Of a stretch of 12,817 bases of DNA, positions 519-7,970 are shown one piece after another. Numbering within the stretch: the first letter of the stretch is position 1; each line of letters starts with the position of its first letter. The notes below the pieces were generated by a model. It had not been told where the DNA came from. It made no database searches and saw nothing but the letters and a program-made list of their open reading frames with translations. This DNA comes from a virus. A program made the translations under genes and the position numbers. The DNA is taken from UHGV virus genome UHGV-0147886. One strand, given 5' to 3'.

Positions 519-809
519 TTACCGCCGTAAGTGCTCCGGCTTCCTCCACTGGTAAGTATTTTTCGCGCTCTCCCTCCGTTGTTGAGAACGGCGACGGTAT
601 GCCAGCAACTCAAGAACTCTGGTTCGTATGTTGCGCATATCCACGCCGTTAAGCTCAATACCGTCACGGCGCATTACCTCAGCCACCACACGCGCGTAAT
701 TTTCGGCTATCACGCTGTCCGGCTGTGTAGCCTGTTCGTCAGGCTGACGACTGATTCCGGTAATGCGGCGAATTATTTTTAGTAGATCAGTTTCAGTCAT
801 TCTCGTCAT
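519..809 (-). CDS. Hypothetical 96-aa protein, translationally coupled to terL
   Basis: ATG at 809-807 overlaps the terL stop (ATGA overlap at 806-809). Last ORF of the head/packaging operon. No recognisable motif. Confidence 0.6.
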   Translation of the reverse strand: MTRMTETDLLKIIRRITGISRQPDEQATQPDSVIAENYARVVAEVMRRDGIELNGVDMRNIRTRVLELLAYRRRSQQRRESAKNTYQWRKPEHLRR

Positions 810-2455
810 ACCCCATCAAATGCCGCAAGTCGCTCTTTCTGGCTGTCGCTCATATCAAATGCAAATTCCTCATGCTCAGCCTGGAATGTGCCAAACGCCA
901 TCAGCGCCGCAACGCTCGGGTCTATCTTATTGGATGATTTTTTCTTGTTCGGCTTGATATTGGCGTTCGCGTCACTCTGCATCACAACATTACTCATTGA
1001 CCAGGCCAGCACCGGATCACCACGATGAACAATCACCTTCCGGTTAACAAAAACTTCGAACGATTTCGCCGCCGGACTAAAACGAAGGTACGTTTGCGGG
1101 AACGGCTCCACCTCAAATCCCGCTCCCTGTAGCTGCGTCCTCAGGTGCGTGGCGTTCCATGTATCGAAACCCACCAGCCTGATATTGAAATTCTCTGCAT
1201 CCGCCATGATGTCATCACGGATACGGTCATAATCAATGCAGTCACCCGGTGTTGTGCGTATCCAGCCCGCCTTTACCCACTGGCGATAGATGGCGCGGTT
1301 TTTATTGGCGGGGTTCTGTAGCTGAAATTCCGGTAGATAGTGACGTGAAACCAGCATAATCTTTTTACCGACCGGGAAGGCATAGCACACGCTGGAAATA
1401 TCGCTGGTTGATGATAAGTCCAGCCCCGCATAGCACTCCTGCCCGTATAAATCCGCCTCAGCGAACGTTCCGGCGCACTCCGCCCATGCACCGTTACCCA
1501 TCCACGGCGTAGCCCCCTGACACCAGATATTGAATCGCTTGGTGAGCATTTCCACCCACTGCGACGGAATACCCCGCGCTTTCTGGATGGTTGAGGCCAG
1601 TTTTTCACGATCGATATTGGGATTCGCCTTTATCCACATCGCCGGATCGTCAACCTCGCTTTCATCATCCAGCTCGTAAATCAGTACGAACATGGATTCG
1701 TTCACCTCTTCACCATCCAGTATCTGGCAGCAATAGTCGTAGTGTTGTTTACAGGCTGAAACAACGTTGCTCCCCGATGTGGTGATGGCAAATAACAGCC
1801 CCTCCGGACGCGCCCCCATCCCCAGTTCAAGTGCGGAATAAACCCCGTTGTCTGGGTGCAGGTGATATTCATCCACAATGGCAAGACTCGGGTTTGTCCC
1901 CTCAATGGTTGCCGCTTTTGCTGCCAGTGGCTTTAACAGGCTGTTGGTTTTCGGGTGTATCACCTTGTGCGCCTGAATATTTACCCGCTTTCGTAACGGT
2001 CGGGATAAAAGGCACATCTGACGCGCATCATCAAACACGATCCGCGCCTGATCACGACTCACGGCGGCGGTGTAAATATCCTGCTGCCCGTTTTCCATAA
2101 CCAGAAACCAGTTAGCCAGGATAGCGGCGACCGTGGATTTGGCATTTTTTCGCGGTACTTCAATGAATGCGCTGGTGTATTTGCGCCGTCCGGTGGCCTT
2201 AACCTTAAATCCCAGGATGCAGGCAAAGGCGAACTGCTGCCACGGCTCAAGTTCAATGGGGCTACCGCGCATTGCGCCTTTTACGTGCGGGCACACCCGG
2301 GAAAAGGCAATAAACCGCTCCACGACCTCCGGATCGAACGTGTAAAGGGAGTTTTCAAGGTCAGAAAAATACCGTTTAACAGCCTGTTTCAGTCGTTTAC
2401 AGGCCGTAATTTTGCCGTTTTTTACGCCTTCTGCGTACTCATGCCAGGCGGTCAA
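806..2455 (-). CDS. terL: Phage terminase large subunit (TerL)
   Basis: 549-aa ORF with Walker A-like VPRKNAKST and Walker B-like LAIVDEYH in the N-terminal half and a C-terminal nuclease-like region. Directly downstream of terS with 17-nt overlap. First codon at 2455 is TTG, preceded by AGAGGA; no in-frame ATG nearby, so the exact start is uncertain. Confidence 0.9.
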   Translation of the reverse strand: MTAWHEYAEGVKNGKITACKRLKQAVKRYFSDLENSLYTFDPEVVERFIAFSRVCPHVKGAMRGSPIELEPWQQFAFACILGFKVKATGRRKYTSAFIEVPRKNAKSTVAAILANWFLVMENGQQDIYTAAVSRDQARIVFDDARQMCLLSRPLRKRVNIQAHKVIHPKTNSLLKPLAAKAATIEGTNPSLAIVDEYHLHPDNGVYSALELGMGARPEGLLFAITTSGSNVVSACKQHYDYCCQILDGEEVNESMFVLIYELDDESEVDDPAMWIKANPNIDREKLASTIQKARGIPSQWVEMLTKRFNIWCQGATPWMGNGAWAECAGTFAEADLYGQECYAGLDLSSTSDISSVCYAFPVGKKIMLVSRHYLPEFQLQNPANKNRAIYRQWVKAGWIRTTPGDCIDYDRIRDDIMADAENFNIRLVGFDTWNATHLRTQLQGAGFEVEPFPQTYLRFSPAAKSFEVFVNRKVIVHRGDPVLAWSMSNVVMQSDANANIKPNKKKSSNKIDPSVAALMAFGTFQAEHEEFAFDMSDSQKERLAAFDGV

Positions 2456-2795
2456 GTTCGTCCTCTTCCTCTGTTTCCGGTGGATTTCTGCGACGGCTTA
2501 CCGGGTCAAAACCCAGCAAAGAAGCCATTTTGATCATTATTCTTTCTGCGTCAGCCTTTGCGCTCAGTGCGGGGTTTCTGCTCTCGCTGCCCTGACTGTT
2601 AACAATGCTGAACCCGCGCGTCGCAAGGTCTTCGACGGCTTTGCGGTATATAGAGTAGTTAACGCAATACAGTTCCAGATTGCTCCAGTCGGCGGGGGTA
2701 AGGTCTTCCCGCCCGGAAAGCTGGCGCGATTTTTCCTTCCACTGCCTGACCGCGATTTCATCCAGGTAAGCGGGGGCTTTTGGTGGTCTTGCCAT
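2439..2795 (-). CDS. terS: Phage terminase small subunit, P27-family-like
   Basis: 119 aa from ATG 2795-2793 (MARPPKAPAYLDE...). Size and sequence pattern match P27-family TerS and it sits immediately 5' of terL. The longer ORF to 2936 is read-through of the G-rich intergenic region and is rejected. Confidence 0.8.
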   Translation of the reverse strand: MARPPKAPAYLDEIAVRQWKEKSRQLSGREDLTPADWSNLELYCVNYSIYRKAVEDLATRGFSIVNSQGSESRNPALSAKADAERIMIKMASLLGFDPVSRRRNPPETEEEDELDRLA

Positions 2796-2811
2796 GTTCT
2801 TTTTTCGCCCA

Positions 2812-2840
2812 ATTATTTTCAAAAAAATTACCGTGCACAA
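2812..2840 (-). promoter_or_regulatory. Candidate sigma70-like promoter for terS-terL
   Basis: Minus strand reads TTGTGC (2840-2835), a 17-nt spacer, then AATAAT (2817-2812), about 20 nt upstream of the terS ATG. Hexamers read by eye, not scored. Confidence 0.35.
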
Positions 2841-2846
2841 AAATTT

Positions 2847-2906
2847 GAGGGGGCGGTCGGTGTCCGGCAGGGACGGTTTCGTCCTGAAAACCACCCCCAC
2901 CCCCTC
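2847..2906. other. Nested G/C-tract inverted repeat in the HNH-terS gap: candidate cos/packaging site or intrinsic terminator
   Basis: GAGGGGG (2847-2853) and CCCCCTC (2900-2906) are reverse complements and bracket an inner hairpin (2868-2886, loop GTTT). On the minus strand the structure is followed by AAATTTTT and further T runs. Confidence 0.35.
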
Positions 2907-3083
2907 TGACGGCCTCACCAGCGATTGCGAAAACATTCCATGACCTCGCGGTCACGGTCGGTTAATCGCTTCGCTGTGGTGCGTTTTGTGCGCCCTGTCC
3001 TGTTGGCTTTGTGCTCTGTCTCCTGTGTCTTCCATGTGTCACGCTGCCTTATCAGTCCACGTATCAGCCTGGTTTGCTCCTGT

Positions 3084-3524
3084 TCAGTCATCATCGCCAT
3101 ACATCCAGTCGTTACGGTGTGCCGCCCGTTCTTCCTGCTCGCGATACATGCCCGCTTTACGGTTTGTTTTCGTGGCTGGATCTTCCCGTGTCGTCTTACG
3201 GTTGTGGCACGTCTGGCACAATGCCTGGTGATTCCACTCAGGCCAGAAGAGAACATCACCGCCGCCATTGATGGGAATGATGTGATCCACCACAAGAGCT
3301 GGCGTATAAATCCCCTTAGCCAGACAACGCACGCATAACGGGTTTTTGCTCAGGTACAGGGCGCGGTATTTGTCCCACTGTCGGGAATACCCGCGCGCGC
3401 GGCGGTGTCCCCGTCTGGCATCCTCTGCACGCCATGCAGCCCGCCTGTGCTCTTCACACTTGCCGGACTTCACGCGCTTATTACAGCCAGGCTCAGTGCA
3501 TCGCCTTAATGGTTGCCACGGCAT
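3084..3524 (-). CDS. HNH endonuclease (phage packaging-associated)
   Basis: 146 aa. N-terminal Cys cluster CTEPGCNKRVKSGKCEEH and HNH core ...VVDHIIPINGGGD...WNHQALCQTCHNRK. Start ATG shares one base with the connector stop (TGATG). Sits next to terS, as is typical for HK97-like cos-type packaging modules. Confidence 0.85.
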   Translation of the reverse strand: MPWQPLRRCTEPGCNKRVKSGKCEEHRRAAWRAEDARRGHRRARGYSRQWDKYRALYLSKNPLCVRCLAKGIYTPALVVDHIIPINGGGDVLFWPEWNHQALCQTCHNRKTTREDPATKTNRKAGMYREQEERAAHRNDWMYGDDD

Positions 3525-3826
3525 CAGTACACCCCTACGTCACGATAAACTGACCAGAGCGCAGAAATAGCCATAGGCAGTTCCGAGTGCTCCACTGGTG
3601 AAACCGCTTCCCGGTTCTCGTACAGGAAAGCGATGTACATCAGGCAACCAACACGCATTGCCGGGGTAAATTCCAGCCCGTCTTCAAAACGTTTCCCGAT
3701 ATGCTTCTGGCAGGCTTCCAGCGCCGCATCGGTATACATTTTCAGAAGTTCGCCTTCACCGGATAAATCATCATCAAGTCGAAGATGTGCCCTGACTTCA
3801 TCAGGTGTAATTCTGGCTTCACTCAT
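3524..3826 (-). CDS. gp6-like head-tail connector/adaptor protein
   Basis: 100 aa from ATG 3826-3824 with RBS AGGGAG 5 nt upstream. N-terminus ...ITPDEVRAHLRLDDDLSGEGELL... matches the characteristic start of gp6-like head-tail connector proteins. Overlaps the portal stop by 8 nt. Confidence 0.7.
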   Translation of the reverse strand: MSEARITPDEVRAHLRLDDDLSGEGELLKMYTDAALEACQKHIGKRFEDGLEFTPAMRVGCLMYIAFLYENREAVSPVEHSELPMAISALWSVYRDVGVY

Positions 3827-5033
3827 CTTTTCTCCCTTTAATTTCCACAGTCTGTTTCCATGCCTGGCTGAACTCATCACCACCTTCACGCGGCGGCATA
3901 CCCTCACGCTCACGGGCTTCGTTCGGATTCATGATCCCGTTCTTAATCCCTTTCTCATACGTGGCATAACGTTCGGTGGGTGTGGCGCGTAATAAATCGG
4001 CTGAATCAAACTCAACCAGATAACGGGTACCAGGTACGGGAGAAGCCACCAGCAAAGCGGCCTTGATTTGCTGTTCGAAGTTCGCCAGCCACGGGCGCAT
4101 TGTCATGGTCAGAAACGCGCGGCTTGCCTCGCTGAAATTGCTGTAGGTGCTGTTGCTGTATTCCTGCAGAAAAATAGGCGATACGTTGAACATGCGGGCG
4201 ATGTCTTCAATGGAGAAGCGACGGGAGGCCAGCCATTCCGCATCCTGGTTACTCATTCCCAGTTGCCTGTAATCCATGCCCCCTTCAAGGATTGGCGTTT
4301 TTCCGGCATTTTTCGCCCCCTTGTAGCGTTCCAGAGCATCCAATGCCTGTTTACCTTTCACGCCGTCCAGCCATTCGCCTGACGTGATAATCCCTGCCGC
4401 CATCATGCCATCTTTCATAATGCTGGCTCCGTGACGCTGTTGAGCAAGGCCAAGCCCCAGCGCCTCACGGCAAATCGTGACGGGGGAACGCCCCAGAAAG
4501 CCATCATCCGAGGCATAGCGGAGATGCAAAACTTCTTCCTGTAAATACGTGCGCACCGTTCCTGTACAGGGTTCGGTGATGGTATAGCGGTATTTGTGTG
4601 CGCCTGTGCGTTCCGGTACAACACACCCCGGCGCATAAGGATGAAGTGATTTTGGCTGCCCGTCCTGCCCCCACTCAATAACCGCATAGGCGTTACCGTT
4701 CAGCAGGCAGTGACGCATCATTGTGCGTTTAAACTGGTAAGGTGTCTGGCACGAATTAGGCTGCTCATTCAGCAGAATATCTACCGGGTGACTGTCCAGC
4801 CATTCCCGCGCCTCCCTGCCCTTGTCATTACGTACCAGATACAGATAACACGGCATCGTGGCCACCGCCTCAGCGATGACAGAAACCGCATTCATCACTG
4901 CAGGCAATGATTCAGCCGTCCCGGCAGAAACATATTCTCCGGATCCGGTATTCGGTACGCCGGACAGCGCCAGAAAATCATCAATGGACAGGTTACGCTG
5001 CTCGCTTTTTTTACGACTAAAAGGCCACCACAT
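3819..5033 (-). CDS. Phage portal protein, HK97 family-like
   Basis: About 404 aa from ATG 5033-5031, which lies 1 nt after the protease stop (TGATATG). Size and sequence pattern, including a conserved C-terminal region (...FSIEDIARMFNVSPIFL...NPNEAREREGMPP...), fit HK97-type portals. The upstream extension to 5123 starts at TTG with no usable RBS. Confidence 0.85.
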   Translation of the reverse strand: MWWPFSRKKSEQRNLSIDDFLALSGVPNTGSGEYVSAGTAESLPAVMNAVSVIAEAVATMPCYLYLVRNDKGREAREWLDSHPVDILLNEQPNSCQTPYQFKRTMMRHCLLNGNAYAVIEWGQDGQPKSLHPYAPGCVVPERTGAHKYRYTITEPCTGTVRTYLQEEVLHLRYASDDGFLGRSPVTICREALGLGLAQQRHGASIMKDGMMAAGIITSGEWLDGVKGKQALDALERYKGAKNAGKTPILEGGMDYRQLGMSNQDAEWLASRRFSIEDIARMFNVSPIFLQEYSNSTYSNFSEASRAFLTMTMRPWLANFEQQIKAALLVASPVPGTRYLVEFDSADLLRATPTERYATYEKGIKNGIMNPNEAREREGMPPREGGDEFSQAWKQTVEIKGRKDE

Positions 5034-7359: not shown

Positions 7360-7782
7360 CTAAAAGGGTATGTTATCCCCGTATGGATCATCATTCCCCG
7401 CCTGTTGCTTAGCCCTATTTAGAGCGTCAGTAGCCTGACCCTGCTGGCCTTTTTTGCCACCAGGTCGCGCCGTTCTGGCACTGATTACGCTGTCTGCGAT
7501 AACCTGCCAGCCCTGCCGCGTTTCCCCGTTCTGGCCTGTCCACTGGCTTACCTGCATGTTACCCGCCACGCTCACCAGCTCGCCTTTGTGGTGTTTTGCC
7601 AGTGCGTCGGCCTGTCTGCCAAACGCCAGGACGGATAACCACATCGTCGCCTGTCCGTCATCTGCCTGATTGCACGGCAGGTGGACCGCCATGCTTGCCA
7701 TAGCCATTTGTGTGCCCTTGCTGGTGGTCTTTAACTGCGGGTCAGCCACCAGCCGCCCGTAAGCTGCTATCTGTGCTGTCAT
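7360..7782 (-). CDS. ssb: Single-stranded DNA-binding protein (SSB)
   Basis: 140 aa. OB-fold SSB pattern (...WLSVLAFGRQADALAKHHKGELVSVAGNMQVSQWTGQNGETRQGWQVIADSV...) and an acidic C-terminal tail ending DDPYGDNIPF, like the conserved bacterial SSB tip ending DIPF. Confidence 0.8.
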   Translation of the reverse strand: MTAQIAAYGRLVADPQLKTTSKGTQMAMASMAVHLPCNQADDGQATMWLSVLAFGRQADALAKHHKGELVSVAGNMQVSQWTGQNGETRQGWQVIADSVISARTARPGGKKGQQGQATDALNRAKQQAGNDDPYGDNIPF

Positions 7783-7845: not shown

Positions 7846-7970
7846 TGCGGGTTATAATCGCACTTTTGCGGGTTATAACTGCCGTTTTGCGGGTTACGTG
7901 CGGGTTATTGATTTCCTTTTTATTCATACAGTTAATTCACTTATACACAGGATAACCCGCATAACCCGCA
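7846..7970. repeat. Iteron cluster 2 (putative origin-like region), immediately 3' of the replication protein gene
   Basis: Four direct TGCGGGTTA(T/C) units at 7846-7855, 7867-7876, 7888-7897 and 7899-7908 (21-, 21-, 11-bp phasing). AT-rich spacer 7909-7951. Two inverted ATAACCCGCA units at 7952-7961 and 7961-7970. Confidence 0.65.

Follow-up and report, generated by a model that had tools for sequence, protein, structure and literature searches.

A probable cohesive-end packaging site between the HNH endonuclease and small terminase genes of a capsid-forming PICI of Escherichia coli

Why should the genes for the HNH endonuclease and the small terminase stand 288 bp apart in an operon whose genes otherwise crowd together? 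We sought to answer this question for a 12,817-nt stretch of viral DNA (UHGV virus genome UHGV-0147886, referred to here as the window), in which the HNH stop codon lies at 3084 and the terS ATG at 2795, as a preliminary description of the sequence had reported. That description set the gap against operon junctions that overlap or nearly touch, which holds with the exception of a 54-nt gap between the capsid and protease genes, and it read the gap as a cos site, as a terminator and promoter that would uncouple terminase from capsid expression, or as both. We find that a 119-bp part of the gap, 2796–2914, is probably the cos packaging site of a capsid-forming PICI (cf-PICI), a reading to which we assign a probability of roughly 0.85.

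A capsid-forming island with a small gene inside the gap

We identify the window as an E. coli cf-PICI whose genes lie on the minus strand. We counted as cf-PICIs elements of 10–18 kb that carry int, alpA and a replication module together with capsid, protease, portal, connector, HNH, TerS and TerL genes and that lack tail and lysis genes, and the window element has this size and composition. Pfam and PHROG scans recovered the cf-PICI gene set in its usual order and no tail or lysis genes. Hits covered AlpA, SSB, a DUF927 primase, and ORF6N and DUF4222 proteins; the major capsid protein (HK97-type), a prohead protease (S78), a portal and a gp6-like connector; and an HNH endonuclease, a P27-family TerS and TerL. 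Many E. coli strains carry a chromosomal island that matches the hnh–terS segment at 99.8% identity, and in E. coli MS6198 the island lies between fis and yhdJ with a tyrosine integrase at its far end. Identity to the island of O157:H7 strains is 84.6% over this segment; this lineage includes EDL933, the strain of the prototype cf-PICI EcCIEDL933. Relatives of the segment occur in 534 of 5426 complete E. coli genomes. Elements of this class reportedly package via cohesive ends with their own HNH, TerS and TerL, and the window HNH is homologous to HK97 gp74 (36% identity, E = 6e-17) and to the SfI HNH (37% identity, E = 1e-17).

Gene content differs between islands. The window carries an SSB gene at 7360–7782 on the minus strand (PF00436, E = 5e-17, with a C-terminal ...DNIPF tail), and the MS6198 island (L001) has other genes at this position. 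The MS6198 island has no annotated 'head closure' gene, its connector abutting the portal, and the ORF layout of the window agrees (3524–3913); in EDL933-type and Klebsiella-type relatives a 'head closure' gene adjoins the connector gene (L002 1685–2285).

The genes on either side of the gap, and one within it, are as follows.

3084..3524, minus strand: HNH endonuclease gene, packaging accessory nuclease (Pfam PF01844, E = 8.7e-10; PHROG 144)
2915..3100, minus strand: small ORF of 61 aa, core MTEQEQ...REVMECFRNRW (PGAP, PHROG 3173, dN/dS)
2439..2795, minus strand: terS, P27-family small terminase (PF05119, E = 4e-23)
806..2455, minus strand: terL, large terminase (PF03354 and PF20441)

The gap had been described as wholly non-coding, a claim that the conserved 186-nt small gene inside it overturns in part. 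This ORF overlaps the end of the HNH gene by 17 nt, is annotated by PGAP in every relative examined (50–61 aa) and encodes a protein whose match to PHROG 3173 runs from end to end of it (E = 6e-27). With 88 unique nucleotide sequences and 69 unique proteins compared, dN/dS had a median of 0.36 and stayed below 1 in 99% of pairs, codon position 3 varied most, and an indel of seven codons kept the reading frame; the small ORF is under purifying selection. Since the ORF is coding and conserved, the true intergenic region is the 119 bp at 2796–2914. The encoded protein is basic, and its homologues are proteins of E. coli and E. fergusonii that are all named 'hypothetical' in databases. An AF2 model consists of two helices (pLDDT 76, pTM 0.36), a shape too simple to make a fold search worthwhile.

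At the other edge of the region, the terS start at 2795 is correct: a longer ORF from 2936 was rejected, for among 139 unique relatives about half close the frame upstream of the 2795 ATG within 1–10 codons. The Shine-Dalgarno sequence of terS is weak. A comparable layout is seen in Acinetobacter phage AbIPP1 (L303 442–783, L302), where HNH is followed by an unrelated 72-aa ORF, about 120 nt and then terS, and where the 120-nt stretch includes T-rich blocks besides a G-run and a C-run (GACCGCCCCC). The placement of a small gene between hnh and cos may recur.

Conserved blocks, mapped cos junctions and physical ends

The 119-bp region resolves into a series of blocks.

2796..2914, minus strand: true intergenic region, predicted cos site (block conservation; collinear with mapped cos junctions)
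2878..2906, minus strand: G-run block GAGGGGGTGGGGGTGGTTTTCAGGACGAA, near-invariant in about 120 unique relatives, at the predicted right end of packaged DNA
2866..2877, minus strand: hypervariable spacer of fixed length, with 26 distinct 8-nt cores
2850..2859, minus strand: predicted 10-nt 3' cohesive end 5'-CGACCGCCCC-3', aligned to the SfI, HK97 and EPP-1 ends
2812..2849, minus strand: predicted start of the packaged left end (CTCAAATTTTT) and A-tract block, near-invariant

Read along the coding strand, the region opens with the G-run block GAGGGGGTGGGGG-N3-TTTTCAGGAC (2906–2878) and about 12 hypervariable nucleotides, continues with GGACACC-GACCGCCCC-CTCAAATTTTT (2865–2839) and GCACGG-NN-ATTTTTTTGAAAATAA (2836–2813), and closes with a variable leader before the terS ATG. 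We collected about 120 unique versions from IMG/VR in two independent motif scans, each cross-checked for the block that was not used in the search; loci gathered by motif bias the conservation counts within each pattern, a bias offset by the cross-checks for the other block and by a BLAST-selected E. coli set. Distant E. coli relatives (L003/L004) retain 85–90% identity in the three non-coding blocks, compared to 72% in HNH, 47% in the small ORF, 78% in terS, 50% in the spacer and about 40% in the leader before terS. The intergenic region is better conserved than the genes that surround it. Of 105 unique sequences, 103 place the first two conserved blocks 33 nt apart, with 26 different cores in the spacer between them, and this combination of fixed spacing and free sequence fits spaced protein contacts on duplex DNA, unlike a stem-loop. 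Exact matches to a 24-base pattern taken from the C-run and A-tract blocks, searched in species-representative genomes, were found in seven genera of Enterobacterales (Pantoea, Phytobacter, Enterobacter, Intestinirhabdus, Winslowiella, Klebsiella and Kosakonia), and the blocks are kept in relatives that lack the small ORF. Among the homologues L011–L169, the spacer at 2866–2877 is strictly fixed in length and hypervariable between its near-invariant neighbours.

We rebuilt the HK97 cos junction by joining both ends of the HK97 record, and this junction is collinear with the intergenic region (local z = 5.3, a score reached by 0 of 2000 shuffles). Using the junction of Edwardsiella phage EPP-1 as a query led to the Shigella phages SfI and SfV and to Burkholderia phi644-2. 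The ends of SfI, phi644-2 (which enters the alignment by its record ends), EPP-1 and HK97 align to the window nearly without gaps over about 118 nt, with global alignment z scores of 5.3 for SfI, 8.8 for phi644-2 and 7.2 for EPP-1. The ST64B, SfII and SfV records open at other points near the site and were left out of nick mapping; the AbIPP1 record starts at the terS ATG and is hence uninformative on ends.

For SfI, run-off sequencing of particle DNA gave a 10-nt gap, TGCCCGCCCC, and we read this gap, rather than an overlap, as the mark of a 3' overhang. Experiments on HK97 established that the overhang is 3' and 10 nt long, that HNH stimulates cleavage, and that the TerS site occupies positions 15–29, where the C:G pair at 21 is critical and an A-tract spans 23–31. 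EPP-1 was assembled from a random-shear library, and PhageTerm was used to correct the assembly. The alignment pairs CGACCGCCCC of the window with the cohesive ends of SfI and HK97 (CGCCGCCAAA in the latter) and places the boundary of the corrected EPP-1 record at 2850|2849. On this alignment, the predicted nicks lie at about the 2860|2859 boundary on the bottom strand and at 2850|2849 on the top strand, and the packaged left end would start at 2849 with CTCAAATTTTT. We put the chance that both nicks fall within 3 nt of these positions at slightly better than even; the local alignment to HK97 would move the top-strand cut to after CTCAAA (2844|2843). From the predicted left end to the terS ATG the distance is 55 nt, compared to 48–51 nt in SfI, phi644-2, EPP-1 and HK97.

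Counted from this left end, positions 15–29 would place the equivalent of the HK97 TerS site at about 2835–2821, CACGGTAATTTTTTT. The window shows C:G pairs at positions 17–19, an A/T tract from position 20 and a T7 run at 23–29. No sequence similarity could be detected between its TerS and HK97 gp1, and a PDB sequence search with this TerS returned no matching chain, which makes the TerS-site model one of analogy; identity to the EPP-1 TerS is about 39%. In EPP-1 (L304 48–650), the annotated terS product carries a stretch of about 36 aa twice in exact tandem (LAGNPGKRTLNKNEPVFTPIAGVEPPEWFSEDGLLL), a duplication that could be real or an assembly artefact.

Ends of related DNA also fall in this region. 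The 16.5-kb record vB_KppS-Ant (LR881103) was obtained from particles of K. pneumoniae DSM 30104 with a Nextera XT library and SPAdes assembly. PMC8006926 describes it as a filamentous ssDNA prophage; its capsid, portal, HNH, terminase, integrase and primase genes identify it as the cf-PICI of DSM 30104, an island studied as KpCIDSM30104 for which cohesive ends have been reported. Both linear ends of LR881103 are identical to the chromosome of ATCC 13883, which we take to be the same type strain, and the record lacks 69 bp, the equivalent of window 2880–2812, enclosing the predicted nicks. A loss of this kind is expected when a linear molecule is tagmented, at a few tens of bases per end; no sequence would go missing from a permuted or circular template. 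Two IMG/VR contigs, one from a metagenome (L092, 15.5 kb) and one from an isolate genome (L069, 12.2 kb), end at the equivalents of 2860 and 2859, respectively, that is, at the predicted duplex terminus of the right end, although these ends could also be assembly breaks caused by the G/C-rich inverted repeat or by repeated conserved DNA. Two further candidate contig ends (L028 and L133) were discarded as adjoining storage chunks of one contig. Scanning metagenomes with a loosened motif returned mostly chance matches and 17 true relatives, among which contig ends did not pile up.

Taken together, the cos reading of the preliminary description finds good support for the 119 bp of 2796–2914 only, which are collinear with mapped cos sites and in which the apparent ends of relatives fall, and the site is very probably of the HNH-dependent 3'-overhang type known from HK97, SfV and SfI. 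We propose that the island TerS would bind the C:G-plus-A-tract site about 15–29 bp inside the left end (~2835–2821) on replicated concatemers, and that TerL and HNH would then make staggered nicks, at ~2860|2859 on the bottom strand and 2850|2849 on the top strand, leaving the 10-nt 3' overhang CGACCGCCCC. Packaging would start at 2849, pass through terS and terL and around the element, and finish with the small ORF and the G-run block as the last DNA to enter the capsid. We infer the exact nick positions from the alignment, and the pairing of proteins with blocks, as well as any part that the G-run block or the 61-aa protein may play in termination, by analogy with the mapped systems.

The hairpin, the promoter-like element and alternative readings

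We next considered what the hairpin, the T runs and the promoter-like element of the gap contribute. The nested hairpin at 2847–2906 pointed out in the preliminary description is present in the window, with GAGGGGGTGG/CCGCCCCCTC at 2906–2897 and 2856–2847 as its outer inverted repeat and further stems nested inside, and it is stable as RNA (−38 kcal/mol, z = −3.67, a value that none of 200 shuffles matched) and less markedly so as DNA (z = −2.65). What does not hold is its conservation. The inner stem pairs are kept in only 30–55% of 115 unique relatives, the outer G-run and C-run arms can still pair but change on one side only, and RNAalifold gives a consensus structure of only −6 kcal/mol. 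Hairpin z scores in the EDL933-type relative (−0.25 as RNA), HK97 and divergent relatives are near 0, no better than shuffles, and the Klebsiella type reaches −2.65 as RNA. Inverted repeats of at least 10 nt are frequent in the window (36 in 11.9 kb), and in five cos sites the G-run/C-run repeat is no longer than composition predicts (p = 0.03–0.7), on which ground we rejected the inverted repeat as a selected feature. The hairpin is a by-product of a G-run lying upstream of a C-rich cut site.

The alternative that survives best keeps the cos site and adds to it a modulation of read-through or of terS translation wherever the hairpin is strong, as in the window and the Klebsiella types with the RNA z scores just given. 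That late transcripts have to pass through cos on concatemers is established for lambda-like phages. The EDL933 type, however, does without a hairpin, and the repeat length expected from composition speaks against selection for one, such that we regard this added role as unlikely, if the most plausible of the alternatives.

A second alternative takes the hairpin and T run as an intrinsic terminator and TTGTGC-N17-AATAAT as a promoter, which together would uncouple terminase from capsid expression. The elements themselves are where the preliminary description placed them: on the coding strand the hairpin is followed by T5 at 2843–2839 and T7 at 2827–2821, and the promoter-like sequence spans 2840–2812. 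A stable RNA stem with a T5 run after it, C-to-T changes in the 3' arm that retain G-U pairing, and a fit of AATAAT to the −10 consensus at 5/6 all speak for this reading. For a rho-independent terminator we looked for a compact, conserved G/C stem-loop with an immediate U-run. Instead, the outer stem encloses about 40 nt, the U-run begins 3 nt past the stem (AAAUUUUU), the structure varies among relatives as described above, and neither the terminator scan nor an Rfam search returned a match in the gap. For a sigma-70 promoter we looked for a −35/−10 match of at least 9/12 with T at −7, conserved among relatives; the element matches at 8/12, below the scan threshold, the −10 hexamer is AATAAA in Klebsiella-type relatives, and the scan found no site on the minus strand of the gap. 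Within the supposed spacer, moreover, GCACGG is invariant, which sigma-70 recognition would not need. The terminator-plus-promoter reading is therefore quite improbable, and by analogy with HK97 we prefer to see in the T runs and the promoter-like element the predicted beginning of the packaged left end and a TerS site of the A-tract kind.

Least probable of all is that the blocks are sites for a regulator of terS and terL, such as the 61-aa protein or AlpA, with no part in packaging: they do lie 17–110 nt upstream of the terS ATG, terS must initiate translation independently with a weak Shine-Dalgarno sequence, and a small basic helical protein is encoded directly upstream, but the same blocks recur with the same spacing at the mapped genome ends of SfI, HK97 and EPP-1, relatives without the small ORF keep them, and the particle-derived LR881103 breaks exactly there.

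Comparison with known cos systems

The cos site that we predict closely resembles those of SfI, SfV, EPP-1 and phi644-2, phages that also pair a P27-family TerS with an HNH protein. In these, as predicted for the window, cos lies between hnh and terS about 50 nt before the terS ATG, a G-run precedes the cut by about 44 nt, a C-rich 10-mer occupies the cut itself (TGCCCGCCCC compared to CGACCGCCCC), and a T-rich start of the left end is followed by C:G pairs and then an A/T tract. The sequence of the A-tract block differs (GCACGGTAATTTTTTTGAAAATAA against CCCGCGAAAAATGAAATTTAA). Unlike the SfI group, the window has the 61-aa gene between hnh and cos, belongs to a tail-less satellite, and has ends predicted by alignment.

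HK97 shares the block architecture and its spacing along with a homologous HNH. The distance from the end of the G-run to the top-strand nick, a predicted one in the window, is 44 nt in the window and in EPP-1 and 42 nt in HK97, and in HK97 and the window alike the A-tract begins near position 23, a likeness in geometry between the predicted TerS site and that of HK97. In contrast, the two TerS proteins lack detectable similarity, the overhang and TerS-site sequences differ, and the 319 bp between hnh and cos of HK97 hold no annotated small gene. Such differences in overhang and TerS site fit the mutually exclusive packaging reported for island and helper.

Lambda cos is tripartite, with an upstream element (cosQ), a nicking site (cosN) and a TerS-binding region (cosB) before the terS gene. 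The window follows the same tripartite logic, but lambda has 12-nt 5' overhangs, IHF sites and no HNH, and bears no sequence relationship to the window, where a search of the gap for the IHF consensus found no site. By this analogy the G-run block may play a role like that of cosQ. A bolder extension holds that the G-run block, possibly with the PHROG 3173 protein, is a cosQ-like termination element common to HNH-type cos packagers, with the fixed-length hypervariable spacer and a lineage-specific TerS site setting the specificity of packaging among islands and helper phages that share a host. We hold this extension to be doubtful; if true, it would give a sequence-level explanation of the mutually exclusive packaging of cf-PICI and helper. 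Like the window, finally, a rho-independent terminator has a stem rich in G/C with T residues after it on the coding strand, and it differs in that the window stem encloses a long stretch, its U-run is displaced by AAA and its structure is not conserved.

An HNH-type 3' cos site is a known system, here in a known class of element. The searchable cf-PICI papers state that packaging proceeds via cohesive ends, with the site itself not mapped in them; what is new is the placement of cos in a cf-PICI at nucleotide level, as a prediction, together with a conserved small gene beside it. Such a prediction makes the exclusivity of satellite and helper packaging directly testable, and it opens tests of cos-plasmid vectors for cf-PICI capsids as well as the recognition of cf-PICIs and their genome ends in assemblies. 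It also points to one cos architecture, made up of a G-run, a fixed-length spacer, a C-rich 10-mer, C:G pairs and an A-tract, that is common to phages whose TerS proteins lack detectable similarity.

Several minor observations were made alongside this analysis. On the metagenome contig L190 (FWPU01042859.1, 2673 nt), GGGGGTGGGGGGCATTTTCAGGACAAGC follows unrelated upstream sequence and the contig ends 27 nt past the start of the motif; it may represent another lineage with the same G-run block. Near the fis-proximal end of the island, a perfect 22-bp palindrome (CGAGTTGCAGA/TCTGCAACTCG) occurs twice, at 16–37 and 450–471 of the window, and the two copies flank a small ORF at 245–448. Between the primase and SSB genes, window 7899–7970 contains TGCGGGTTAT followed by two adjacent inverted copies, ATAACCCGCA, at 7952–7961 and 7961–7970, repeats that could be a replication-origin or terminator element.
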